Assembly: GCA_964016885.1 (NCBI GenBank) | Contig: OZ024749.1 | Location: 12,958,001 to 13,022,000 of the forward strand | Length of the DNA: 64,000 nucleotides | Reading direction: 5' to 3' | Origin: Eledone cirrhosa | Lineage: Eukaryota | Shown here: positions 15,836 through 63,693 of the stretch, piece by piece | Position numbering within the stretch: position 1 is the first letter of the stretch | How the letters are laid out: each line of letters starts with the position of its first letter | Made by a program: the position numbers and the translations under genes | The notes under the pieces: generated by a model | The model's input: the letters and a program-made list of their open reading frames with translations, nothing else | The model's database searches: none | Told to the model about the DNA's origin: nothing

Positions 15836-17655
15836 ACTGTTGTTGTTACTGTTGTTGTTGTTACTGTTGTTGTATTTGTTGTTACTGTTGTTGTTGTTGT
15901 TACTGTTGTTGTTACTGTTGTTGTTACTGTTGTTGTTGTTACTGTTGTTGTTGTTGTTACTGTTGTTACTGTTGTTGTTGTTACTGTTGTTGTTGTTGTT
16001 GTTGTTGTTACTGTTGTTGTTACTGTTGTTGTTACTGTTGCTGTTACTGTTGTTGTTGTTGTTACTGTTGTTGTTACTGTTGTTGTTGTTGTTACTGTTG
16101 TTGTTACTGTTGTTGTTGTTGTTACTGTTGTTACTGTTGTTGTTACTGTTGTTGTTGTTGTTACTGTTGTTGTTGTTACTGTTGTTGTTACTGTTGTTAC
16201 TGTTGTTGTTACTGTTGTTGTTGTTGTTATTACTGTTGTTGTTACTGTTGTTGTTGTTGTTACTGTTGTTGTTGTTGTTACTGTTGTTGTTACTGTTGTT
16301 GTTGTTGTTGTTACTGTTGTTGTTACTGTTGTTGTTGTTATTACTGTTGTTGTTACTGTTGTTGTTGTTGTTACTGTTGTTGTTGTTGTTACTGTTGTTG
16401 TTACTGTTGTTACTGTTGTTGTTGTTACTGTTACTGTTGTTGTTGTTGTTGTTACTGTTGTTGTTACTGTTGTTGTTGTTGTTACTGTTGTTGTTGTTGT
16501 TGTTACTGTTGTTGTTACTGTTGTTGTTGTTACTGTTGTTGTTACTGTTGTTACTGTTGTTGTTACTGTTGTTGTTGTTGTTACTGTTGTTGTTGTTACT
16601 GTTGTTGTTACTGTTGTTGTTGTTACTGTTGTTGTTACTGTTGTTACTGTTGTTGTTACTGTTGTTGTTGTTGTTACTGTTGTTGTTGTTGTTGTTACTG
16701 TTGTTGTTACTGTTGTTGTTGTTGTTACTGTTGTTGTTGTTGTTGTTGTTGTTACTGTTGTTGTTACTGTTGTTGTTGTTACTGTTGTTGTTACTGTTGT
16801 TGTTGTTGTTACTGTTGTTGTTACTGTTGCTGTTACTGTTGCTACTGTTGTTGTTGTTGTTGTTACTGTTGTTGTTACTGTTGTTGTTGTTGTTGTTACT
16901 GTTGTTGTTGTTGTTGTTACTGTTGTTGTTACTGTTGTTGTTGTTACTGCTGTTGTTACTGTCGTTGTTGTTGTTGTTACTGTTGCTGTTGTTGTTGTTA
17001 CTGTTGTTGTTACTGTTGTTGTTGTTACTGTTGTTGTTACTGTTGTTGTTACTGTTGTTGTTACTGTTGTTACTGTTGTTGTTGTTGTTACTGTTGTTGT
17101 TACTGTTGTTGTTACTGTTGTTGTTGTTGTTACTGTTGTTGTTGTTGTTGTTGTTACTGTTGTTGTTACTGTTGTTGTTGTTACTGTTGTTGTTGTTGTT
17201 ACTGTTGTTGTTACTGTTGTTGTTGTTGTTACTGTTGTTGTTACTGTTGTTGTTACTGTTGTTGTTACTGTTGTTGTTACTGTTGTTGTTGTTGTCACTG
17301 TTGTTACTGTTGTTGTTACTGTTGTTGTTGTTGTTACTGTTGTTGTTACTGTTGTTGTTGTTACTGTTGTTGTTGTTGTCACTGCTGTTACTGTTGTTGT
17401 TGTTGTTACTGTTGTTGTTACTGTTGTTGTTGTTGTTGTTGTTACTGTTGTTGTTGTTGTTACTGTTGTTGCTACTGTTGTTGTTGTTGTTACTGTTGCT
17501 GTTACTGTTGTTGTTGTTGTTACTGTTGTTGTTGTTGTTGTTGTTACTGTTGTTGTTACTGTTGTTGTTGTTGTTACTGTTGTTGTTGTTACTGTTGTTG
17601 TTGTTGTCACTGTTGTTGTTACTGTTGTTGTTGTTGTTGTTACTGTTGTTGTTAC

Positions 17656-17686
<31 letters not shown>

Positions 17687-19515
17687 ACTGTTGTTGTTAC
17701 TGTTGTTGTTGTTGTTGTTACTGTTGTTGTTGTTGTTACTGTTGTTGTTACTGTTGTTGTTGTTGTTACTGTTGCTGTTACTGTTGTTGTTGTTGTTACT
17801 GTTGTTGTTGTTGTTGTTGTTACTGTTGTTGTTGTTGTTACTGTTGTTGTTGTTACTGTTGTTGTTGTTGTTGTTGTTACTGTTGTTGTTACTGTTGTTG
17901 TTACTGTTGCTGTTACTGTTGTTGTTGTTGTTACTGTTGTTGTTACTGTTGTTGTTGTTGTTACTGTTGTTGTTACTGTTGTTGTTGTTGTTACTGTTGT
18001 TGTTGCTACTGTTGTTGTTGTTGATGTTACTGTTGTTGTTACTGTTGTTGTTGTTGTTACTGTTGTTGTTACTGTTGTTGTTGTTGTTACTGTTGTTGTT
18101 ACTGTTGTTGTTGTTACTGTTGTTGTTGTTGTTACTGTTGTTGTTACTGTTGTTACTGTTGTTGTTACTGTTGTTGTTGTTGTTACTGTTGTTGTTGTTA
18201 CTGTTGTTGTTACTGTTGTTGTTGTTACTGTTGTTGTTACTGTTGTTACTGTTGTTGTTACTGTTGTTGTTGTTGTTGTTACTGTTGTTGTTACTGTTGT
18301 TGTTGTTGTTACTGTTGTTGTTGTTGTTACTGTTGTTGTTGTTGTTACTGTTGTTGTTGTTGTTACTGTTGTTGTTACTGTTGTTACTGTTGTTGTTGTT
18401 ACTGTTATTGTTGTTGTTGTTGTTGTTACTGTTGTTGTTACTGTTGTTGTTGTTGTTACTGTTGTTGTTGTTGTTGTTACTGTTGTTGTTACTGTTGTTG
18501 TTGTTACTGTTGTTGTTACTGTTGTTACTGTTGTTGTTACTGTTGTTGTTGTTGTTACTGTTGTTGTTGTTACTGTTGTTGTTACTGTTGTTGTTGTTAC
18601 TGTTGTTGTTACTGTTGTTACTGTTGTTGTTACTGTTGTTGTTGTTGTTACTGTTGTTGTTGTTGTTGTTACTGTTGTTGTTACTGTTGTTGTTGTTGTT
18701 ACTGTTGTTGTTGTTGTTGTTGTTGTTACTGTTGTTGTTACTGTTGTTGTTGTTACTGTTGTTGTTACTGTTGTTGTTGTTGTTACTGTTGTTGTTACTG
18801 TTGCTGTTACTGTTGCTACTGTTGTTGTTGTTGTTACTGTTGTTGTTACTGTTGTTGTTGTTGTTGTTACTGTTGTTGTTACTGTTGTTGTTGTTACTGT
18901 TGTTGTTACTGTCGTTGTTGTTGTTGTTACTGTTGCTGTTGTTGTTGTTACTGTTGTTGTTACTGTTGTTGTTACTGTTGTTACTGTTGTTGTTGTTGTT
19001 ACTGTTGTTGTTACTGTTGTTGTTGTTGTTGTTGTTACTGTTGTTGTTGTTGTTGTTACTGTTGTTGTTACTTTTGTTGTTGTTACTGTTGTTGTTACTG
19101 TTGTTGTTACTGATGTTGTTACTGTTGCTGTTGTTGTTGTTACTGTTGTTGTTGTTGTTGTTACTGTTGTTGTTACTGTTGTTGTTGTTGTTGTTACTGT
19201 TGTTGTTGTTGTTGTTGTTACTGTTGTTGTTGTTGTTGTTGTTACTGTTGTCGTTACTGTTGTTGTTGTTACTGTTGTTGTTACTGTTGTTGTTGTTGTT
19301 ACTGTTGCTGTTGTTGTTGTTACTGTTGTTGTTACTGTTGTTGTTGTTACTGTTGTTGTTACTGTTGTTGTTACTCTTGTTGATACTGTTGTTGTTACTG
19401 TTGTTACTGTTGTTGTTGTTGTTACTGTTGTTACTGTTGTTGTTGTTGTTACTGTTGTTGTTACTGTTGTTGTTACTGTTGTTGCTCTTCTTGTTACTCT
19501 TGTTACTGTTGTTGT
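15836..19515. repeat. 3.7-kb (GTT)n array punctuated by ACT triplets
   Basis: Pure 3-nt register of gtt runs separated by act. It produces the poly-L, poly-N/S and poly-T/V pseudo-ORFs. Confidence 0.95.
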
Positions 19516-22593: not shown

Positions 22594-22620
<27 letters not shown>

Positions 22621-22629
<9 letters not shown>

Positions 22630-23085
22630 AGTGTAATTTTCTACACAAAACGAAGGTTATAGAGAAAATTGAGGTTGGTAATGGCACATGGAATATATAA
22701 GAGACAGAATACTTTTTTGTGAAAAAACATAATTTTATAAGGTAAGGTAATAATAAAGGGTATAAAAAATGACCGGTTTCGATGGGTCTGCAAAAGCCAT
22801 CTTTTCAAATGTTGATTAATATTAAGAAAAATTAATAATACGAAGAGTTAAAATTTGAGACTTGAAAATTCAAGTATAAAATTCATTGTGGGATTTCATA
22901 GCAGTTTTCATCTAGGTAGCAACAACAGGTTGACTGCTGTGTCCCTTTCTGGTAGTGAATGAGAAGTTATTTGGGGTGTGGGTTATTTTATAAAGGTCAG
23001 ATTTAGCAATAGCCAGCTGCTGGTCAGTGAGGGGGTGGAAGCAATATACACACACATACCTTCATCCACACATACATACACATAC

Positions 23086-23120
<35 letters not shown>
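22621..23120 (-). repeat. 3' pseudo-LTR of PLE-1
   Basis: Appears identical by eye to 27382-27884. Confidence 0.92.
22765..22814 (-). ncRNA. Minimal hammerhead ribozyme (U3-A8 core variant) in the 3' pLTR
   Basis: Reverse complement: TTGAAAA-gatgg-cttttgcagac-ccatc-GAAA-ccgg-TC. 5-bp stem II, palindromic CCGG stem III, GUC triplet. Stem I is weak. Confidence 0.7.
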
Positions 23121-23132
<12 letters not shown>

Positions 23133-23847: not shown

Positions 23848-26124
23848 CTATTGGGGTGATAACCCGTTTAGTTTTGGTTTAAATTTGTTAAGGAATAGAT
23901 TTTCTTTGTTTATTCTTTGTTGTTGTGTGAACGAATCTGAGCACTTGTAGAAGGGGAAGATTTTAAAGTTGGGTAGTGTCATTCCTGCGCAGTTCGCAAT
24001 ATGGCTGCTCAAGGGGATTTTTCTTGTGTTAGCGTCCCGGATTTGTTGGCGGTGGATGGTCATTCTTTTGCGTAATGAGGTGCCCGTCTGTCCTATGTAG
24101 TTGTGTTTGCACCCACCGCAAGTTATTGCGTAAATCAAGTTCTCCGAGTTGCAGGTGAAATTGTTTTTTACTGTAAATGTTTGGCCATCTTTGAATGTAA
24201 ATGTTTGTCCTTCAGTGAGGTAGAGGCACGTTCCACAGTTTGTTCTACCACATTTGGTAACTGTAGGGTTGAGGATTGGTTTGGGTATATTTGGTCCAGT
24301 GAGAATGCGTTTAAGTGATTTGGGTTGTCTTTTACTTTTAAGGATCTTGTGTGTTTCAAGAATAGACTTCATTTTTGCATCTTTAAGTAGGATGGGGAGG
24401 TTTTTGTGTAGGTGATCAAACATTTCGGTATTTCTGGGGTTGAAAGTGGATACATATGGCAGGGTGTTGAGTGTGGTTTTCTGTTTTGGATTGTTAAGTT
24501 GATGGGGATTTAGGTGTTTTGCCCTGTCTATTCCATTGTTGATTATTTCAAGTGGAAAGGCTCTTAAGATAAGGGTGTCTTTTAGTTCCTTTAGTCTTTG
24601 CTCCCGTTTAGGTGGATCTGATACTATGGTACATACACGTTTGGCCAAATTGTAAGGAATGTTAAGTTTTGTATGTTTTGGGTGACTTGATGTGAAAAAG
24701 AGGTATTGCTTGGAATCTGTGGGTTTATAGAATATATCTGTATCTAATTTCCCGTCTATTACAGAGATGAGAATATCCAAGAAGGCTAATTCCTTAGGAT
24801 TGGATTCCATTGTGAATTGTATGTTATTATCTATGTTGTTTATCATGTTTTTAAACGTAGTAAGTGAGTTCATGTCTTCTTGCCATAGGATAAAGCAGTC
24901 GTCTAGATATCTTTTCCAATTGGCTTTGAGGTGTGTGTGGAAAGAGTCTCCAAATAAGAGAAGGGACTGACTGTATATTTGTTGTTCATGGAATCCCATG
25001 ACTAGGTTGGCATATGTGGGTGCTACTTTCGTGCCCATTGCCGTACCTGATACTTGTCTGTATGTTGAACCATTGAATGTGAAGTAGTTATTTTGTAGGA
25101 TAAAGCGGAGTCCGTCAGTGATAAAATCTGTGTTGATGCGTGTCGGTATTTCTGATGGGTGTGTGTTAAGCCAGTATTGGACTGCTGTTATTCCATAGTT
25201 GTGAGGTATGTTTGTGTAGAGGTTTATTACGTCAAAGGAGACAAGAATTGTATTTGCACTTACTGTTTTAGGGAGGTGTTTCAGCATGTCAAGGTCATCT
25301 CGTATGTAGCTCTGTATATGTTGTAGAAAGGGTTTCAGTAGGATGTCCAGAAAGTTGCTAAGTCTGTGGGTTTCACATGTAGGGCCTGCTATAATTGGCC
25401 TGAGTTTTAGGTCTTCTGGTGGTGTTAGTTCAATGTAATTGTTGGTTGAGGTGTCACATGCATCGTTTATGGGTTTACATTTGTGAAGTTTCGGTAAGCC
25501 GTAAAAAGAGCTTGTATTGCATTTGAAGTGGCTTATATAGTTAAACTCTTTTGTGGTTAAGCTGTTGCGGTATTTATTCAGTAAGGTCAAAAGGTTCCCC
25601 ATTGTTTTGGTGTGTTTGTAGTTTTCTGTTTTTTCATAGTATGTGTTGTTTTCTAAAATGTTAAGTGCGAGGGTCCTATAGTAGTCCGTATTCATAATCA
25701 CAACAGTACTGCCTTTATCGGCTTCTTTGATAGTTATCTCAGGGTTGTTTCTAAGTGTGAATAATTCTTCCCATTCGTGTGTAGATAGGTTTGATTTCGT
25801 GTGTTTATTTGTAATTGTTTCATAGGGAAAGTTGGTGATGTGTTCGCAGTACGTGTCCAGTGCTTTATTTCTTCCCTTTTGTGGGCAGAAATTGCTTTTA
25901 TTTCTAACCAGTGATTCGTCTTCAGTGTTGGTGTCGTTGTGGAAGAATTCCGTTAGTCGCAGCTTTCGGCAGTATTCCATGATGTCATCCTTCATTTCGG
26001 GGAAGTTTGGTTTACGTGGTGTAGGTGTAAATTTCAGGCCCTTACTTAAAATGTTGATTTGTGTGTTGGTTAGAGGTGTCTTTGAGAGGTTGATTATTTT
26101 TGGTTTCTCCTGAGGGGGGGCCAT
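23848..26124 (-). CDS. PLE ORF2: reverse transcriptase + Cys-rich linker + GIY-YIG endonuclease (758 aa from ATG; may be translated as an ORF1 fusion)
   Basis: RT motifs ADKGSTVVIM, FYGLPKLHK, LRPII, SFDVINLYTNIP, GTAMGTKVAPTYANL, WKRYLDDCF, FLDI and KPTD...SSHP. Linker CGRTNCGTC. Endonuclease LIYAITCGGC..NYIGQT..R..H..H..E. No stops. Confidence 0.96.
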   Translation of the reverse strand: MAPPQEKPKIINLSKTPLTNTQINILSKGLKFTPTPRKPNFPEMKDDIMEYCRKLRLTEFFHNDTNTEDESLVRNKSNFCPQKGRNKALDTYCEHITNFPYETITNKHTKSNLSTHEWEELFTLRNNPEITIKEADKGSTVVIMNTDYYRTLALNILENNTYYEKTENYKHTKTMGNLLTLLNKYRNSLTTKEFNYISHFKCNTSSFYGLPKLHKCKPINDACDTSTNNYIELTPPEDLKLRPIIAGPTCETHRLSNFLDILLKPFLQHIQSYIRDDLDMLKHLPKTVSANTILVSFDVINLYTNIPHNYGITAVQYWLNTHPSEIPTRINTDFITDGLRFILQNNYFTFNGSTYRQVSGTAMGTKVAPTYANLVMGFHEQQIYSQSLLLFGDSFHTHLKANWKRYLDDCFILWQEDMNSLTTFKNMINNIDNNIQFTMESNPKELAFLDILISVIDGKLDTDIFYKPTDSKQYLFFTSSHPKHTKLNIPYNLAKRVCTIVSDPPKREQRLKELKDTLILRAFPLEIINNGIDRAKHLNPHQLNNPKQKTTLNTLPYVSTFNPRNTEMFDHLHKNLPILLKDAKMKSILETHKILKSKRQPKSLKRILTGPNIPKPILNPTVTKCGRTNCGTCLYLTEGQTFTFKDGQTFTVKNNFTCNSENLIYAITCGGCKHNYIGQTGTSLRKRMTIHRQQIRDANTRKIPLSSHIANCAGMTLPNFKIFPFYKCSDSFTQQQRINKENLFLNKFKPKLNGLSPQ

Positions 26125-27359
26125 CGAGTATCCTGGTATTTCAGGCTTTTCCCTAAAAAAGGAATGTAGTTTTGTGTGTGATTATATTTTGTTGGTCTGT
26201 TGCGTGTGGGTCTGTAGCTTGTTGTTTCATGAGGGTGAATGTGATGGTGGGGGTGGTATGTGTTGTGGTTGTTGATGAGCAAGGGTTCTGTTGTTGGTTC
26301 ATGTGGTCTGGGTGCGTTATTTCTGTGGTACAGAGTGTTGAGGCTGGGGGGTTGTCTTTTGTTGGATTGAGGGTGATGTCTGGTGTGGTTGTGGGTAAGT
26401 TCTGTTGTGATTTCAAGTGGCCTGGGTGGATTTCTTCTGAGGAATGTGGTGTGTGTGTTGTGAGTTGGATCTATGTTATTTCGTCGTTGGTTTATGTAGG
26501 GGGCATTTCTACGGAAACCTGTGTTGTGGTGGTTGGGTGTGTTTCTTTTGGTGTAGTTGGCCGTATTTGGTTTGTGTTGGTGGGGGATGTGCCTGTGGTT
26601 AGTGTGTGTTGGGTTTGGTGGTGTAAATGTGTCTGTTGTAGTTCTTGTTATGTTCAAATGCTTTATAAAGGGGTTACCTGTTTGGTGCGTCCTTTTAAAG
26701 TCTTCTTCATATTTGAGGAACCAGTTTTCGGATTTTTCCCACCGTTTAAGGGAAATGGTTTCTGCATTCTCGCAGTCCTGTTTCCACGATTTGATTAAAT
26801 TTTGTAGGGTTGTTCCCTCGGCCTTTTTAGTGCATTCTTCCTCCATATTTTTATCAGTATCCTTATACTCTTGCTCGTTTGAGGTGGCCCTTAATTTTAG
26901 GAGTTCTATTTCCATGTTTATCCTGTTGAGTGACATTTGTTCACGGAGTTTTCTTTCTGGTTCAGGTTCGTTTGTAATATGCTTTATTTGGAATTTACGT
27001 GGTAAAACTATCGGTGTTGAGTTAATCCATTTTTGGTAAATTCCAGCTTTGTTGAGGTTTTTTATCATATTCCAGAAAGTGAATTTTCTGGTTTTTAGAT
27101 GTTTTTTCCAGAGGTGTCCCATTTGGTTTTTGATATGGAGCAATGTCGTTTGTTCTGTGTTGGTATTCATAAGTTTTTCGATGGAGTTGCATACGTTTTG
27201 AACGTTTAAATAAATTTGGTTGTCAGTCGGTGTGGTGGTTTGGGGTATATCCTGTTTTTTTGTCAGAATGGTGAGTTTTCCATTTATCTCTTTTAGGATT
27301 TTCAGGATTTCCTCATTGATATTGGAGTTTGAAGTGGTGTTGTCTTGTTCCAGTGCCAT
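26094..27359 (-). CDS. PLE ORF1: 421-aa protein with helical/coiled-coil N-terminal two-thirds and a His/Asn/Thr/Pro/Arg-rich disordered tail; function unknown
   Basis: Long non-repetitive ORF starting ~22 nt after the 5' pLTR and overlapping ORF2. Heptad-like segments ILKILKEINGKLTIL and LNRINMEIELLKLRA. Confidence 0.85.
   Translation of the reverse strand: MALEQDNTTSNSNINEEILKILKEINGKLTILTKKQDIPQTTTPTDNQIYLNVQNVCNSIEKLMNTNTEQTTLLHIKNQMGHLWKKHLKTRKFTFWNMIKNLNKAGIYQKWINSTPIVLPRKFQIKHITNEPEPERKLREQMSLNRINMEIELLKLRATSNEQEYKDTDKNMEEECTKKAEGTTLQNLIKSWKQDCENAETISLKRWEKSENWFLKYEEDFKRTHQTGNPFIKHLNITRTTTDTFTPPNPTHTNHRHIPHQHKPNTANYTKRNTPNHHNTGFRRNAPYINQRRNNIDPTHNTHTTFLRRNPPRPLEITTELTHNHTRHHPQSNKRQPPSLNTLYHRNNAPRPHEPTTEPLLINNHNTYHPHHHIHPHETTSYRPTRNRPTKYNHTQNYIPFLGKSLKYQDTRWPPLRRNQK
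26154..26160 (-). promoter_or_regulatory. Candidate -1 ribosomal frameshift slippery heptamer U UUU UUA
   Basis: ORF1 reads CCT TTT TTA GGG AAA (PFLGK). The -1 frame TTT TTT AGG GAA AAG CCT GAA ATA CCA GGA TAC TCG ATG is open into ORF2. Confidence 0.7.
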
Positions 27360-27381
27360 TTTCCGGATTTGCGTAGGTTAG

Positions 27382-27848
27382 TATATATGAAAAGTGTAAT
27401 TTTCTACACAAAACGAAGGTTATAGAGAAAATTGAGGTTGGTAATGGCACATGGAATATATAAGAGACAGAATACTTTTTTGTGAAAAAACATAATTTTA
27501 TAAGGTAAGGTAATAATAAAGGGTATAAAAAATGACCGGTTTCGATGGGTCTGCAAAAGCCATCTTTTCAAATGTTGATTAATATTAAGAAAAATTAATA
27601 ATACGAAGAGTTAAAATTTGAGACTTGAAAATTCAAGTATAAAATTCATTGTGGGATTTCATAGCAGTTTTCATCTAGGTAGCAACAACAGGTTGACTGC
27701 TGTGTCCCTTTCTGGTAGTGAATGAGAAGTTATTTGGGGTGTGGGTTATTTTATAAAGGTCAGATTTAGCAATAGCCAGCTGCTGGTCAGTGAGGGGGTG
27801 GAAGCAATATACACACACATACCTTCATCCACACATACATACACATAC

Positions 27849-27884
<36 letters not shown>
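27382..27884 (-). repeat. 5' pseudo-LTR of PLE-1 (direct), with a hammerhead copy at about 27528-27577
   Basis: Direct repeat of 22621-23120, truncated in the internal TA microsatellite. Confidence 0.92.
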
Positions 27885-27888
<4 letters not shown>

Positions 27889-28229
27889 CTAAATCTGACC
27901 TTTATAAAATAACCCACACCCCAAATAACTTCTCATTCACTACCAGAAAGGGACACAGCAGTCAACCTGTTGTTGCTACCTAGATGAAAACTGCTATGAA
28001 ATCCCACAATGAATTTTATACTTGAATTTTCAAGTCTCAAATTTTAACTCTTCGTATTATTAATTTTTCTTAATATTAATCAACATTTGAAAAGATGGCT
28101 TTTGCAGACCCATCGAAACCGGTCATTTTTTATACCCTTTATTATTACCTTACCTTATAAAATTATGTTTTTTCACAAAAAAGTATTCTGTCTCTTATAT
28201 ATTCCATGTGCCATTACCAACCTCAATTT

Positions 28230-28234
<5 letters not shown>
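27884..28234 (+). repeat. Inverted pseudo-LTR of PLE-1, with a hammerhead copy at about 28082-28130
   Basis: Reverse complement of 27424-27774. ttgaaaagatgg...ccatcgaaaccggtc is readable on the plus strand. Confidence 0.92.
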
Positions 28235-28982: not shown

Positions 28983-29291
28983 ATATATCTCACTCTGTCT
29001 TTCATTCTCTGTCAGTCTCTCGGTCTATCTCTCTCTCTATATATATTTATCTCTCTCTGTCTCTCACTCTATCTGTGTATTTCTTACTCTGTTTCTCTCA
29101 GGTTCTCTCACTCTCTCTCTCCCCCCCCTCTCACGCTCACTCTCTCTCACTCTCTCCCCCTCTCTCTCTCCCTCTCCTGACATTAATTCATGTGTCACAG
29201 CTCACAGCTCATGTCATTCGGACAATCATTGCAGGATTTGGGAATTACGAAGAACGGAAGTAACGTAATAAAGAGCGGGAAGAAGATACTG

Positions 29292-29478
29292 ATGGTGGTG
29301 GTGGTGGTGGTGGTGGTGGTGGTGGTGGTGATGGTGGTGGTGGTGGTGGTGGTGGTGGTGGTGGTGGTGGTGTCGGTGGTGGTGGTGGTGGTGTCGGTGG
29401 TGGTAATGGTGGTGGTGGTGGTGGTGCTGCTGGTGGTGGTGGTGGTGGTGGTGGTGGTGGTGGTGGTGGTGGTGTCGG

Positions 29479-29509
<31 letters not shown>

Positions 29510-30290
29510 GGTGGTGGTGGTGGTGGTGGTGGTGGTGGTGGTGGTGGTGGTGGTGTCGGTGGTGGTGGTGGTGGTGGTGGTGTCGGTGGTGGTGGTGGTG
29601 GTGGTGGTGTCGGTGCTGGTGGTGGTGGTGCTGGTGGTGGTGGTGGTGGTGTCGGTGGTGGTGGTGGTGATGGTAATGGTGGTGGTGGTGGTGGTGGTGG
29701 TGGTGGTGGTGTCGGTGGTGGTGGTAGTGGTAGGGATATTGGTGGTGGTGGTGGTGGTTGTGGTGGTTGTAGTGGTGGTGGTGGTGGTTGTGGTGGCGTT
29801 GGTGGTGGTGGTGGTACTGGTGGTGGTTGTAGTAGTGGTGGTGGTGGTGGTGGTGGTGGTGATAAAGGTAGTGGTGGTGGTGGTACTGGTGGTGGTGGTG
29901 GTGATGGTCGTGTCGGTGGTGGTGTTGGTGGTGGTGTTTCTGTTGGTGGTATTGGTGATGATATTGGTAGTGATGGTAATGATCAGGGTAGAGTTGGTTC
30001 TATTGGTATTGCAGGTGGTAGTAGTGGTAATGTTTGTGGTTATGGTATTGATGGTGGTGAAAGTAGTGGTGGTAGTGGTAGAGATGGCAGTGGTTGTGGT
30101 GGTGGTAGATATGTTGTTGGTGTTCTTGTTGTTGTCGGTGGCGGTGGCGGTGGTAACTGTGGCGATAATGTTATTGATAGTGGAGGTGAGGCTGTTATTG
30201 GTTGTGGTGGTTGTAGTGGTGGTAACTGTAGTGACAGTGGTATTGATGGTGATGGCAGCGGTGATTGTGGTAGTGGTGGTGGAGGCGACA
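29292..30290. repeat. (GGT)n array grading into degenerate GT-rich triplets
   Basis: Seen directly. Followed by an (ACC)n-rich tract at about 30345-30585. Confidence 0.9.
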
Positions 30291-30721
30291 CTGATGTGCC
30301 AATCTAAATATCATCTTTGACATACAAATCTAACCACGTAGTACCCCCTACCACCACCACACCTCCACCTCCACTACCACCACCACCACAACTAGCACAC
30401 CACCACTATCACTTACATCACTACTATCACCACCACCACTACCACATCACCACAACTGCTACCACCACTACCACTTCCATCACTACTACCACCACCTCCA
30501 CCACCACCACTACTACCACCACCACCACCACCACCACTACTACCACCACCACCACTACCACTAACTACACAGCCACCGCCACCGTCACTTGCTGTTGTTT
30601 ATATTACATTTTAAACAACACCACTTCATATATGTACTTATATGTAGAAAGAAAGGTGGTGTTAAACATTCGCACACAGACACACACGCATACATACACA
30701 AACACACATACACAACAATAT

Positions 30722-30918: not shown

Positions 30919-31207
30919 TCATCATCATTTTACGTCCGCTTTTCCCTGCTTGCAAGGGTGGGACGGGTCCTATTCAGCAAAGCATCTCTCCACTTGTCAC
31001 GGTCCCTCGTCATCTCCACCGTGAGCTTCAGCGATCTGAGGTCTGTTCTCACCCCCTCCGCCCATGTTTTTCGTGGTCTACCTCTACCACGTCTTCCTTC
31101 AACTGGCATTTCCTGGCACTTCTTCATCCATCGGTCATCTTCCATGCGCATGCCCATACCACCGTAGTCCATCACATGTCCATACCACCGTAGTCTCCTC
31201 TCCCGTA
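30915..31207 (-). mobile_element. RTE-clade LINE 3' end fragment
   Basis: VRERRLRWYGHV...EGRRGRGRPRKTW.E.VR.DL...DRDKWR, followed by a (TGA)n tail, embedded in (TA)n. Confidence 0.88.
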
Positions 31208-31271
31208 CATATATATATATATAGGATTTAGTAACATGAAAGATGAACAAACCTTCTTCTTTAATTTCTAA

Positions 31272-31320
31272 TTCACTTGATAAGATGGAGTACAATAATA
31301 CATCGAAACCGGTTGTATTT
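31272..31320 (+). ncRNA. Minimal hammerhead-like motif (U3-A8 variant) in a PLE pLTR remnant
   Basis: TTGATAA-gatg...catc-GAAA-ccgg-TT. Same architecture as the PLE-1 ribozyme, with a GUU triplet. Confidence 0.55.
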
Positions 31321-58660: not shown

Positions 58661-61600
58661 ACTGTTGGTTGTAGTAGTGTTGGTTGTAGTAGTGTTGGTT
58701 GTAGTAGTGTTGGTTGTAGTAGTGTTGGTTGTAGTAGTGTTGGTTGAAGTAGTGTTGGTTGAGGTAGTGTTGGTTGTAGTAGTGTTGGTTGTAGTAGTGT
58801 TGGTTGAAGTAGTGTTGGTTGAGGTAGTGTTGGTTGAAGTAGTGTTGGTTGTAGTAGTGTTGGTTGTAGTAGTGTTGGTTGAAGTAGTGTTGGTTGAAGT
58901 AGTGTTGGTTGTAGTAGTGTTGGTTGTAGTAGTGTTGGTTGTAGTAGTGTTGGTTGTAGTAGTGTTGGTTGTAGTAGTGTTGGTTGAAGTAGTGTTGGTT
59001 GAGGTAGTGTTGGTTGTAGTAGTGTTGGTTGAGGTAGTGTTGGTTGTAGTAGTGTTGGTTGAGGTAGTGTTGGTTGTAGTAGTGTTGGTTGTAGTAGTGT
59101 TGGTTGAAGTAGTGTTGGTTGTAGTAGTGTTGGTTGTAGTAGTGTTGGTTGTAGTAGTGTTGGTTGTAGTAGTGTTGGTTGTAGTAGTGTTGGTTGTAGT
59201 AGTGTTGGTTGAAGTAGTGTTGGTTGTAGTAGTGTTGGTTGTAGTAGTGTTGGTTGTAGTAGTGTTGGTTGAAGTAGTGTTGGTTGTAGTAGTGTTGGTT
59301 GTAGTAGTGTTGGTTGTAGTAGTGTTGGTTGTAGTAGTATTGGTTGAAGTAGTGTTGGTTGAGGTAGTGTTGGTTGTAGTAGTGTTGGTTGAAGTAGTGT
59401 TGGTTGTAGTAGTGTTGGTTGTAGTAGTATTGGTTGAAGTAGTGTTGGTTGAGGTAGTGTTGGTTGTAGTAGTGTTGGTTGAAGTAGTGTTGGTTGTAGT
59501 AGTGTTGGTTGTAGTAGTATTGGTTGAAGTAGTGTTGGTTGAGGTAGTGTTAGTTATAGTAGTGTTGGTTGTAGTAGTGTTGGTTGTAGTAGTGTTGGTT
59601 GTAGTAGTGTTGGTTGTAGTAGTGTTGGTTGAAGTAGTGTTGGTTGTAGTAGTGTTGGTTGTAGTAGTGTTGGTTGTAGTAGTGTTGGTTGTAGTAGTGT
59701 TGGTTGTAGTAGTGTTGGTTGTAGTAGTGTTGGTTGTAGTAGTGTTGGTTGAAGTAGTGTTGGTTGTAGTAGTGTTGGTTGTAGTAGTGTTGGTTGTAGT
59801 AGTGTTGGTTGTAGTAGTGTTGGTTGAAGTAGTGTTGGTTGTAGTAGTGTTGGTTGTAGTAGTGTTGGTTGTAGTAGTGTTGGTTGTAGTAGTGTTGGTT
59901 GTAGTAGTGTTGGTTGAAGTAGTGTTGGTTGAAGTAGTGTTGGTTGTAGTAGTGTTGGTTGTAGTAGTGTTGGTTGTAGTAGTGTTGGTTGTAGTAGTGT
60001 TGGTTGTAGTAGTGTTGGTTGAAGTAGTGTTTGTTGTAGTAGTGTTGGTTGAGGTAGTGTTGGTTGTAGTAGTGTTGGTTGAAGTAGTGTTGGTTGAAGT
60101 AGTGTTGGTTGTAGTAGTGTTGGTTGTAGTAGTGTTGGTTGTAGTAGTGTTGGTTATTCTAGTGGTGGTTGTAGTAGTGTTGGTTGTAGTAGTGTTGGTT
60201 GTAGTAGTGTTGGTTGAAGTAGTGTTGGTTGTAGTAGTGTTGGTTGTAGTAGTGTTGGTTGTAGTAGTGTTGGTTGTAGTAGTGTTGGTTATTCTAGTGG
60301 TGGTTGTAGTAGTGTTGGTTGTAGTAGTATTGGTTGAAGTAGTGTTGGTTGAGGTAGTGTTGGTTGTAGTAGTGTTGGTTGAAGTAGTGTTGGTTGTAGT
60401 AGTGTTGGTTGTAGTAGTATTGGTTGAAGTAGTGTTGGTTGAGGTAGTGTTGGTTGTAGTAGTGTTGGTTGAAGTAGTGTTGGTTGTAGTAGTGTTGGTT
60501 GTAGTAGTATTGGTTGAAGTAGTGTTGGTTGAGGTAGTGTTAGTTATAGTAGTGTTGGTTGTAGTAGTGTTGGTTGTAGTAGTGTTGGTTGTAGTAGTGT
60601 TGGTTGTAGTAGTGTTGGTTGAAGTAGTGTTGGTTGTAGTAGTGTTGGTTGTAGTAGTGTTGGTTGTAGTAGTGTTGGTTGTAGTAGTGTTGGTTGTAGT
60701 AGTGTTGGTTGTAGTAGTGTTGGTTGTAGTAGTGTTGGTTGAAGTAGTGTTGGTTGTAGTAGTGTTGGTTGTAGTAGTGTTGGTTGTAGTAGTGTTGGTT
60801 GTAGTAGTGTTGGTTGAAGTAGTGTTGGTTGTAGTAGTGTTGGTTGTAGTAGTGTTGGTTGTAGTAGTGTTGGTTGTAGTAGTGTTGGTTGTAGTAGTGT
60901 TGGTTGAAGTAGTGTTGGTTGAAGTAGTGTTGGTTGTAGTAGTGTTGGTTGTAGTAGTGTTGGTTGTAGTAGTGTTGGTTGTAGTAGTGTTGGTTGTAGT
61001 AGTGTTGGTTGAAGTAGTGTTTGTTGTAGTAGTGTTGGTTGAGGTAGTGTTGGTTGTAGTAGTGTTGGTTGAAGTAGTGTTGGTTGAAGTAGTGTTGGTT
61101 GTAGTAGTGTTGGTTGTAGTAGTGTTGGTTGTAGTAGTGTTGGTTATTCTAGTGGTGGTTGTAGTAGTGTTGGTTGTAGTAGTGTTGGTTGTAGTAGTGT
61201 TGGTTGAAGTAGTGTTGGTTGTAGTAGTGTTGGTTGTAGTAGTGTTGGTTGTAGTAGTGTTGGTTGTAGTAGTGTTGGTTATTCTAGTGGTGGTTGTAGT
61301 AGTGTTGGTTGTAGTAGTGTTGGTTGAAGTAGTGTTGGTTGAAGTAGTGTTGGTTGTAGTAGTGTTGGTTGTAGTAGTGTTGGTTGTAGTAGTGTTGGTT
61401 GAGGTAGTGTTGGTTGTAGTAGTGTTGGTTGTAGTAGTGTTGGTTGAAGTAGTGTTGGTTGAAGTAGTGTTGGTTGAAGTAGTGTTGGTTGTAGTAGTGT
61501 TGGTTGTAGTAGTGTTGGTTGTAGTAGTGTTGGTTATTCTAGTGGTGGTTGTAGTAGTGTTGGTTGTAGTAGTGTTGGTTGTAGTAGTGTTGGTTGAAGT

Positions 61601-62060
61601 AGTGTTGGTTGTAGTAGTGTTGGTTGTAGTAGTGTTGGTTGTAGTAGTGTTGGTTGTAGTAGTGTTGGTTGAAGTAGTGTTGGTTGAAGTAGTGTTGGTT
61701 ATAGTAGTGTTGGTTTGTTGGTTGTAGTAGTGTTGGTTGTAGTAGTGTGGTTGTAGTAGTGTTGGTTGTAGTAGTGTGGTTGTAGTAGTGTTGGCTGTAG
61801 TAGTGCTGGTTGTAGTAGTGTTGGTTGTTCTAGTGGTGGTTGTAGTAGTGTTGGTTGTATTAGTGTTGGTTGTAGTAGCGTTGGTTGAGGTAGTGTTGGT
61901 TGTAGTAGTGTTGGTTGTAGTAGTGTGGTTGTAGTAGTGTTGGCTGTAGTAGTGTTGGCTGTAGTATTGCTGGTTGTAGTAGTGTTGGTTGTTCTAGTGG
62001 TGGTTGTAGTAGTGTTGGTTGTAGTAGTGTTTGTTGTTCTAGTGGTGCTTGTAGTAGTTT
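58661..62060. repeat. 15-bp tandem array (tggttgtagtagtgt)n, about 3.4 kb, with a 990-bp higher-order duplication
   Basis: Exact 15-nt register to about 61720. Rare variants recur 990 bp apart. Confidence 0.97.
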
Positions 62061-62132
62061 TAGTGGTATTTGTAGTTGTGGATGTAGTGCTGATGTGACT
62101 GACTTTCTACAGGTGTTTATAGATGAGATACA

Positions 62133-62960
62133 GGTGGTGATGGTGGTAGTGGTGATGGTGGTAGTTGTGGTGGATGTGGTGGTGTAGTGGTGGTGGTGGT
62201 GGTGGTGGTGGTGATGGTGGTGGTGGATGTGGTGGTGGTGGTGATGGCGGTAGTGGTGGTGGATGTGGTGGTGGTGGTGTAGTGGTGGTGATGGTGGTGG
62301 TGGTGGTGGGTGAGGTAGTGGTGGTGGTGGTGGTAGTTGTGGTGGATGTGGTAGTGGTGGTTGTGCTGGTGGGGTTAGTTGTGGTGGTGGTGGTGGTGGT
62401 AGTGGTGGTGGTGGTAGTTGTGGTGGTGGTGATGGTGGTGGTGATGGTGGTGGTGATGGTGGTGGTGATGGTGGTTGTGCTGATGAGGGTAGTTGTGGTG
62501 GTGTTGGTGGTGGTGGTGATGGTGATGGTGGTGATGGTAGTGGTGGTGGTGGTGGTGATGGTGGTTGTACTGATGGGGGTAGTTGTGCTGGTGTTGCTGG
62601 TGGTGGTGATGGTGATGGTGGTGATGGTAGTGGTGGTGGTGGTGGTGGTGATGGTGGTTGTACTGATGGGGGTAGTTGTGCTGGTGTTGGTGGTGGTGGT
62701 GGTGATGGTGGTGATGGTGGTGGTGGTAGTAGCGATGGTGGTGGTGATAGTGACGGTGGTGGTAGTGGTGGTGATGGTGGTGGTGGTGATTGTGTGGTTG
62801 TTGTTGCAGTTGTTATTGTTGTTGTTGATGTTCGCGTGGTTGGTAATGTTGGTGTTGTAGATGTTGAATGTAGTGGTGGTGTTGTTGTTGCTGTCGTTGT
62901 TGCTGTTGCTGTTGCTGCTGTTGTTGTTGTTGCTGCTGCTGGGGTTGCTGTTGTTATTGT
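62133..62960. repeat. Degenerate (GGT/GAT/GTT)n triplet array
   Basis: Seen directly. Confidence 0.85.
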
Positions 62961-63693
62961 TAAAGGTGATTACCAAAATGAGTCATCATATTTTTCGAAA
63001 ATCCTCCTATTGATTGGTAAGTGACCGTAAAGGTTAGTATTGAGTAATGGCGTCATCCACTAACTCCCTCTACCGACCACGACCCACAATACACCACTCC
63101 ACATCATTCCACACACCACTCCACATCATTCCACACACCACACTCCACATCACTCCTATAACGCCCTCTACCGACCAAACCACACACTACACACCACACC
63201 ACTACACACCACTTGTTACCACACACCACCCCACTTCACCCCTCTAGCGCCCTCTACCGACCATACCACACCATCACACCCCACTTCATCCCTTTAGCGC
63301 CTTTAGTATGCCCGACACAGCATACCACTCCACATCAGACACCACACCACACCCCACACCACATCAGACACCACACCACTCCACACCCCACCACACCACA
63401 CACCACTCCACATCAGACACCACACACCACACCACACACCACCCCACACCCCACACCATACCACTCCACACCCCGCACCACTCCACGCACCACACCACTC
63501 CACATCAGCCACCACACCATTCCACCCCCCACCCTACACCACACCCCACGTCACACCACACACGGCGCCACCACACCACAACTCCACACACCATACCACA
63601 CACCGCTCCACTACACTCCACTAACACTTTACAATACAAACAAGACATGCGCAGTAAAGACAAGCAATAGATGGACGATCAGACCATACGACC

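Follow-up and report, generated by a model that had tools for sequence, protein, structure and literature searches.

How does a retrotransposon deliver its reverse transcriptase (RT) and endonuclease (EN) when these are encoded in a second reading frame that overlaps the end of a first? The question is raised by a Penelope-like element (PLE) on the minus strand of a 64,000-nucleotide (nt) stretch of the Eledone cirrhosa genome (GCA_964016885.1, contig OZ024749.1, positions 12,958,001 to 13,022,000), hereafter the window, in whose numbering all positions are given. Endonuclease-bearing PLEs are given one open reading frame (ORF) in PMC8557442, and PMC6431247 describes PLEs as having one ORF with EN or two ORFs without it; these and all other papers named below are cited for the excerpts consulted. 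In the window element the two frames meet at a heptamer, U UUU UUA, which on sequence evidence is very probably a programmed −1 frameshift site joining ORF1 to the RT–EN frame of an endonuclease-bearing PLE. The layout, the −1 offset and the in-phase heptamer are fixed in the window family and kept at the nucleotide level in three further families of the same genome.

The junction between the two frames

ORF1 (26094–27359, minus strand; a program-made ORF and translation) encodes 421 amino acids (aa) from an ATG at 27359, its C-terminus reading IPFLGKSLKYQDTRWPPLRRNQK before the TAA stop at 26094–26096. ORF2 (23848–26181, minus strand) lies in the −1 frame and is open from 26181 to 23851, 777 aa from stop to stop; upstream it is closed by a TAA at 26182–26184 that stands 7 codons before the heptamer, close to the approximately 8 given in the first-pass annotation. 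That annotation had also placed the heptamer in the only stretch, of about 100 nt, where a shift could fuse the frames; the overlap does span the heptamer and measures slightly less, 85 nt. The heptamer itself (T TTT TTA, 26154–26160, minus strand) stands in X XXY YYZ phase in ORF1 (CCT TTT TTA GGG) and is followed by GGGAA, a description that proved correct on rereading, and 60 nt with 19 intervening codons separate its UUA codon from the ORF1 stop. The predicted −1 fusion, recomputed as 402 + 768 = 1170 aa, agrees with the earlier estimate.

An X XXY YYZ heptamer, in phase and within a −1 overlap, has the form of a frameshift signal. Its position exceeds chance: in-phase [T/G]3 T3 N heptamers occur 10 times in 21,027 codons of 23 elements and in 0 of the 958 codons of the window element used as background, and the exact heptamer lies inside the ORF overlap in all four families of the genome.

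In the mechanism that we propose, most ribosomes would finish ORF1 and release the 421-aa protein, consisting of a helical domain and a disordered tail, and a minority would slip in tandem on tRNA-Phe and tRNA-Leu to produce the 1170-aa ORF1–RT–EN fusion. Slippage would thereby fix the two products in a gag/pol-like ratio and keep the enzyme attached to the particle, the ORF1 protein being, by analogy, likely an RNA-packaging or RNA-binding scaffold. U_UUU_UUA is named as the HIV site in PMC5009743, which counts G_GGU_UUU among the shiftiest heptamers. As in HIV-1 gag–pol, U UUU UUA is followed by GGG and a structural ORF precedes a polymerase in the −1 frame (PMC4373837, PMC5009743); the window element differs in having no stable stem-loop after the site and no capsid-like match for ORF1, and it is a non-viral retrotransposon, the likeness being one of mechanism and not of descent.

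Copies and families in one genome

A search of the 3.0-Gb genome returned 40 scored matches, all at approximately 100%. In the window family (family A), the heptamer is present in 30 of the 30 best loci, the window's own included, and the −1 offset in 29; it is unchanged in 52 of 53 aligned loci (53 of 54 given could be aligned) and altered in one. Among 88 junctions, found with an exact pattern that is blind to shortened or much longer C runs, 79 are of standard length, six carry one and three carry two additional bases in the C run, so that most copies are not fused in one frame, and the outcome that the first-pass annotation had named as refuting its reading does not hold. Contigs from four runs were compared: three of the runs, all from one other sample, keep T6 at a depth of about 830–990, and a single contig at depth 4.9 has T7. 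These contigs support the existence of the junction in DNA only. The homopolymers at the junction would suit a copy-specific mutation or an assembly error that split a single ORF, a reading that is barely credible, refuted as it is by the copy counts, the contigs of the other sample and the ORF1 clusters described below. The split ORFs are no artefact.

Slippage of RNA polymerase or RT on T6 or C7 could instead add a base, with fused mRNAs or copies supplying the RT. Frame-fusing insertions in the C run do recur (6/88; L061–L064), and one low-depth contig has T7. We nevertheless regard this route as highly improbable: families B–D do not share the C run, neither a Leu codon nor a fixed phase would be needed, and the nine aligned fused loci lie on different single-nucleotide polymorphism backgrounds and contain several different insertions (four in L061–L064), with no amplified fused lineage seen among them. 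Polymerase slippage, moreover, usually needs longer runs.

The C7 run (26114–26120, minus strand; L061–L064, L290–L296) is an insertion hot spot that fuses or breaks single copies. It expands often, by up to 16 bases, and insertions of 1, 7 or 16 bases join the frames in single copies; long C runs also appear as loose ends in the contigs of another sample, so that some of them are real.

Searches with distant queries yielded families B, C and D, whose ORF2 proteins and that of family A are 47–60% identical. All three read CAT TTT TTA in ORF1 phase with the RT in −1, and of the distinct junction strings, 38 of 41 (B), 14 of 16 (C) and 34 of 36 (D) retain an intact heptamer. Silent sites are saturated at this distance, because none of the 6 invariant Phe and none of the 15 invariant Leu columns of ORF2 keeps one codon across the four families, yet the junction codons are TTT TTA in 4/4, with synonymous-choice probabilities of 0.025, 0.034, 0.013 and 0.050. 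Together with the ORF1 tails considered below, this amounts to conservation beyond protein constraint.

Relatives and a possible stimulus for shifting

Beyond this genome we drew on 119 loci from metagenome and genome contigs, in which 69 distinct junctions could be anchored (A–C included). A quick tree of 50 rows, which excludes family D and the 19 of 69 junction rows below 380 aa, places the window element in a group with SH-aLRT 100. Eight loci from outside the genome belong to this group and extend far enough upstream (L117 and L119 placed by similarity, not by the tree); they read T TTT TTA in five cases, T TTT TTG in two and A AAA AAC in one, where ORF1 is broken; all are in phase and none has an upstream ATG.

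Clusters at 50% identity that match the ORF1 profile number 1222. Among the 150 best of them, 0 are longer than 1000 aa and 0 are fused to RT, and the best 120 RT matches do not exceed 803 aa in a search reaching up to 1327. After dropping 51 of the best 150 ORF1 clusters, which have fewer than 80 residues after the domain, 99 tails were kept, and Phe-Leu occurs within the last 45 residues of 80 of them as against 4/93 in the preceding 45, counted on proteins. The residue before Phe-Leu is never K, E, Q, M or W (0/80, 16.9 expected), which fits a slippery site because the codons of these residues cannot end in U, the first base of the heptamer. Heptamer and −1 offset are thus kept across families with saturated silent sites and across ORF1 clusters at 50% identity, and the frameshift interpretation of the first-pass annotation is supported at the level of sequence.

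The T run followed by AG could also be read as a 3′ splice acceptor, ORF1 being intronic and a spliced mRNA giving the RT, a possibility that the first-pass annotation did not raise. Families A, B and C do read pyrimidines and AG at the site, the next codon starts with G in 56 of the 80 ORF1 tails, introns occur in PLEs (PMC4209133), and acceptor-like tracts lie just before the RT motif in five distant relatives (L128, L137, L142, L145 and L154). We consider splicing very unlikely for the window element: it fails for family D, where T TTT TTA AC stands in 33 of 36 strings and AG in one, and for other relatives, L186 and L124 reading T TTT TTG T and 24/80 tails continuing with a residue that no G-starting codon encodes. 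Splicing would neither fix the phase to ORF1 nor keep ORF1 open across the site, and in HIV-1 shifting is itself favoured when G follows U UUU UUA (PMC4373837).

Translation of ORF2 alone, from the in-frame ATG at 26122–26124 (minus strand; MAPPQEK), by termination–reinitiation or from a shorter transcript, would leave the heptamer a remnant or a minor route. The ATG is followed by G and stands 28 nt before the ORF1 stop; in 37 of the 51 RT relatives with an upstream Met (120 examined) that Met lies within 13 codons of the conserved N-terminal motif (IINLS at 26097 in the window), and ORF1 stop and ORF2 ATG overlap in eight distant loci (L130, L133, L138, L139, L143, L148, L150 and L151). Among the 12 junctions of the clade available as DNA, however, just one has such an ATG. 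Families B, C and D have none before the motif, their first RT-frame ATG coming 135, 36 and 15 codons, respectively, after its start, so that in family B the conserved N-terminus would be shortened by 135 codons. As the intact heptamer would also go unexplained despite saturated silent sites, exclusive translation from this ATG seems unlikely, although in the window family it may provide an additional route.

Several observations weigh against a programmed shift at U UUU UUA. Family A has the ATG just described; in a score-ranked and gene-caller-dependent set of RT relatives, 51 of 120 gene calls begin at a Met a short way ahead of the N-terminal motif; and 19 of the 99 ORF1 tails lack Phe-Leu, which was counted in protein sequences. 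Many more distant relatives lack the heptamer and use other junctions, and the trait is therefore clade-limited. One distant group (12 rows, all from one assembly), in which 9 rows carry an in-phase G GGT TTY within 1–3 codons of where ORF1 stops, has an ORF1 without detectable likeness to that of the window (best E 0.02), and on sequence comparison is a parallel case and not a heptamer swap in the same gene. Finally, in families A–D the heptamer is not followed by any stable or shared structure (z = 0.0, −0.4 and −1.6 for A–C; no 4-bp stem at all in D).

The other junctions have features of their own. The G GGT TTY site, as a second in-phase heptamer at an ORF1 end, counts in favour of frameshifting. 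Eight loci of the G GGT TTY group (L163, L167, L168, L176, L177, L179, L180 and L184) share, 8–35 nt after the heptamer, a hairpin that has two parts, an internal loop and changed pairs, a candidate stimulator that is weak in each locus alone. The eight loci L130–L151 listed above are endonuclease-bearing, with an ORF1 of up to 715 aa that has no Pfam match and ends 330–570 nt before the RT motif; its stop overlaps or closely follows an RT-frame ATG (ATGA, ATGAATGA), which suggests that stop–start coupling likely takes the place of a frameshift. In the sister group of L128, L137, L142, L145 and L154, a pyrimidine tract and CAG stand 14–25 nt before the RT motif, where neither an ATG nor a heptamer is present; a 682-aa ORF of L145 terminates 691 nt upstream, and the ORFs are likely joined by splicing. 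Read from their junctions, related elements employ three modes of ORF1–RT coupling.

What might stimulate the shift in the window family is not apparent as a fold. The first-pass annotation had pointed to a GC-rich pairing downstream of the heptamer, and both CCTG/CAGG (a 4-bp stem at 26132–26145, minus strand) and CCTGA/TCAGG exist; because they use one 5′ arm they are alternatives and do not form a pseudoknot. As a stimulator this pairing did not hold up: the 72 nt downstream are no more stably folded than shuffled sequence (dG −8.2, z = 0.0), the pairing is not shared by B–D, and 26142 G>A breaks a stem pair in 6 of 53 family-A loci. A simple H-type search with 4-bp stems found no pseudoknot in A–D, and simple stem and H-type searches showed neither stem-loop nor pseudoknot of a stimulatory kind 5–9 nt downstream in any of the four. 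A stable RNA fold is thus an unlikely stimulator.

The distance from slip to stop points elsewhere. In the 80 ORF1 relatives, Phe-Leu is followed by one residue before the stop in 5, by 2–9 in none, by exactly 10 in 23, by 11 in 6 and by more in 46, compared with an empirical null of 42% for 2–9 residues and 3.8% for 10. The 10-residue rows are not independent (18/23 fall in one clade), with the label changing 10 times on the tree against 20.1 when shuffled and well-supported branches forcing at least 6 changes. The spacers share only 9% identity, and it is therefore length, not sequence, that is kept. The spacer of family C spans 10 codons, whereas those of family A (19 residues), B (20) and D (23) weigh against a queue of ribosomes, and periodicity at two- or three-ribosome distances was not detected (13/40 near multiples of 10, 12 expected, P = 0.42), so that ribosome multiples do not explain the 19-codon spacer of family A. 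A separate clade (L115; P0192, P0201, P0232, P0252 and P0263) has its ORF1 stop one residue past Phe-Leu, a stop-adjacent form of the site.

In many relatives the stimulator is possibly the ribosome terminating 33 nt downstream. We suggest tentatively, and with some doubt, that a widespread clade (>1,200 ORF1 clusters) uses a structure-free −1 shift in which the ORF1 stop lies one ribosome length (33 nt) past U UUU UUA and the terminating ribosome makes its follower slip. The window family would then be a derived form with a longer spacer and, at 60 nt from the stop, its bare heptamer alone may be sufficient. In 80S ribosomes the best spacing is expected to be somewhat longer than in bacterial ones. 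On engineered E. coli reporters, −1 shifting by the following ribosome increases when the one ahead is paused at a stop, with a sharp optimum at 9 codons or 27 nt (PMC6815119). Two rivals compete with this account: in SARS-CoV-2 the position of the stop acts through refolding of a structure (PMC8168617), and a signal that is concealed or bound by protein could lie within the first 30 nt. Collision-stimulated shifting (Smith et al. 2019) resembles the present case in that the commonest distance between Leu codon and stop in ORF1 relatives is 11 codons; the system there is bacterial and engineered, whereas here it would be natural and eukaryotic, as judged from spacing, and the window family has 20 codons from Leu codon to stop.

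The element and its kin

The window element is a young, intact, endonuclease-bearing PLE. ORF2 matches RVT_1 (Pfam; E = 4.6e-07) and carries the RT motif YLDD at 24909–24898, a CX4CX2C linker (CGRTNCGTC) at 24252–24226 and a GIY-YIG endonuclease at 24138–24091 with LIYAITCGGCKHNYIG and two downstream His, matching the CCHH of PLE-type endonucleases (all minus strand); PF01541 is present in many RT relatives. The element is bounded by pseudo-long terminal repeats (pseudo-LTRs) on the minus strand, the 5′ one (27382–27889) being a direct copy of the element's 3′ end (22619–23126), which ends in a (TA)n tract: 27382–27681 is 100% identical to 22619–22918 and 27790–27889 is 97% identical to 23027–23126. 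An inverted 5′ copy of the pseudo-LTR lies on the plus strand (27884–28234; 351 nt, 100% complementary to 27424–27774 and 22661–23011). The direct pair is offset by 4763 nt, and (TA)n flanks the element.

By the traits of PMC8557442 the element is of Neptune/Nematis type, an assignment by traits, the tree being one of unlabelled loci. With these PLEs it shares an RT with a C-terminal GIY-YIG domain, two Cys between GIY and YIG, a CX2-5CxxC linker before GIY-YIG (found in relatives as well), pseudo-LTRs with an inverted 5′ copy and a (TA)n target (PMC8557442); it differs in its separate 421-aa helical ORF1, whose overlap with the RT frame contains a slippery site that is conserved. The single ORF usual for endonuclease-bearing PLEs is replaced by two overlapping ORFs in 4/4 families, and it is a descriptive trait of canonical elements and not the defining one. 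An Athena/Terminon identity was ruled out by the GIY-YIG domain and by an interstitial (TA)n site in place of telomeric 3′ repeats.

ORF1 comprises a helical N-terminal domain (approximately 27359–26625) and a low-complexity N/H/T/R-rich tail. Residues 1–245 are modelled as five long helices (pLDDT 81), for which neither PDB nor viral models gave a fold match at E ≤ 0.001. ORF1 has no Pfam or atlas match, blanks that show neither novelty nor absence, and 12/12 other ORF1 proteins likewise lack a Pfam family.

Around the element, the pseudo-LTR at 27310–27830 reaches approximately 25–150 times the depth of ORF1 in three runs, indicating many solo or non-autonomous repeat copies. At 27571–27530 (minus strand; copy near 22808–22767), TTGAAAA-GATGG...CCATC-GAAA-CCGG-TCA looks to us like a minimal variant of the hammerhead, its helix III being palindromic; Rfam gives no hammerhead match there and the lowest-energy fold is a different hairpin, and the only Rfam matches obtained are microsatellite-driven and below the gathering score. 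Elsewhere in the window are long skewed tandem and simple-repeat tracts (1–7000, 16000–19000, 29200–30300 and 59000–63000) and, near 30930–31319, a fragment of another RT-element-like frame. PLE contigs also occur in bacterial genome records (L186–L229; P0014, P0044, P0047 and P0056), their proteins named as those of symbionts, probably through host contamination; viral contigs gave 50 pattern matches, none of them a relative.

A killifish Neptune has been described with two non-overlapping ORFs (PMC12602865), and esterases occur in fish and mollusc Neptune-like PLEs (PMC5408684). The excerpts of PMC3846280, PMC5718144, PMC4209133 and 10.64898/2026.07.22.740005 contain nothing on programmed shifting, and we found no report of a slippery site in an endonuclease-bearing PLE in the literature searched, which stops short of Arkhipova 2006/2017, Gladyshev and Arkhipova 2007 and Repbase and is thus no proof of novelty. 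The legend to Fig. 1 of Craig et al. 2021 (PMC8557442, preprint), in the portion consulted, describes an ORF1 separable by a frameshift with a pseudoknot and names no clade; that PLE type resembles ours in a coiled-coil-type ORF1 split from RT by a frameshift, and may overlap the present case. Athena differs from the window element in being endonuclease-less and telomeric, and no pseudoknot was found in the window family. The frameshifting type of the legend is presumably Athena/Terminon.

PLEs are the closest retrotransposon relatives of telomerase. A conserved gag/pol-like frameshift would mean that in a large group of them ORF1 has gone unrecognised and unannotated, and that the RT ORF used by annotation and biochemistry likely falls some 400 aa short of the true enzyme, a fusion. 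One genome offers an easy test system in its four young families and their dozens of near-identical copies, and the fixed slip-to-stop spacing of the relatives offers natural constructs for testing terminating-ribosome stimulation in eukaryotes. If a terminating ribosome does prompt the slip, these elements would represent natural eukaryotic collision-programmed frameshifting, with RT output tied to ribosome load.

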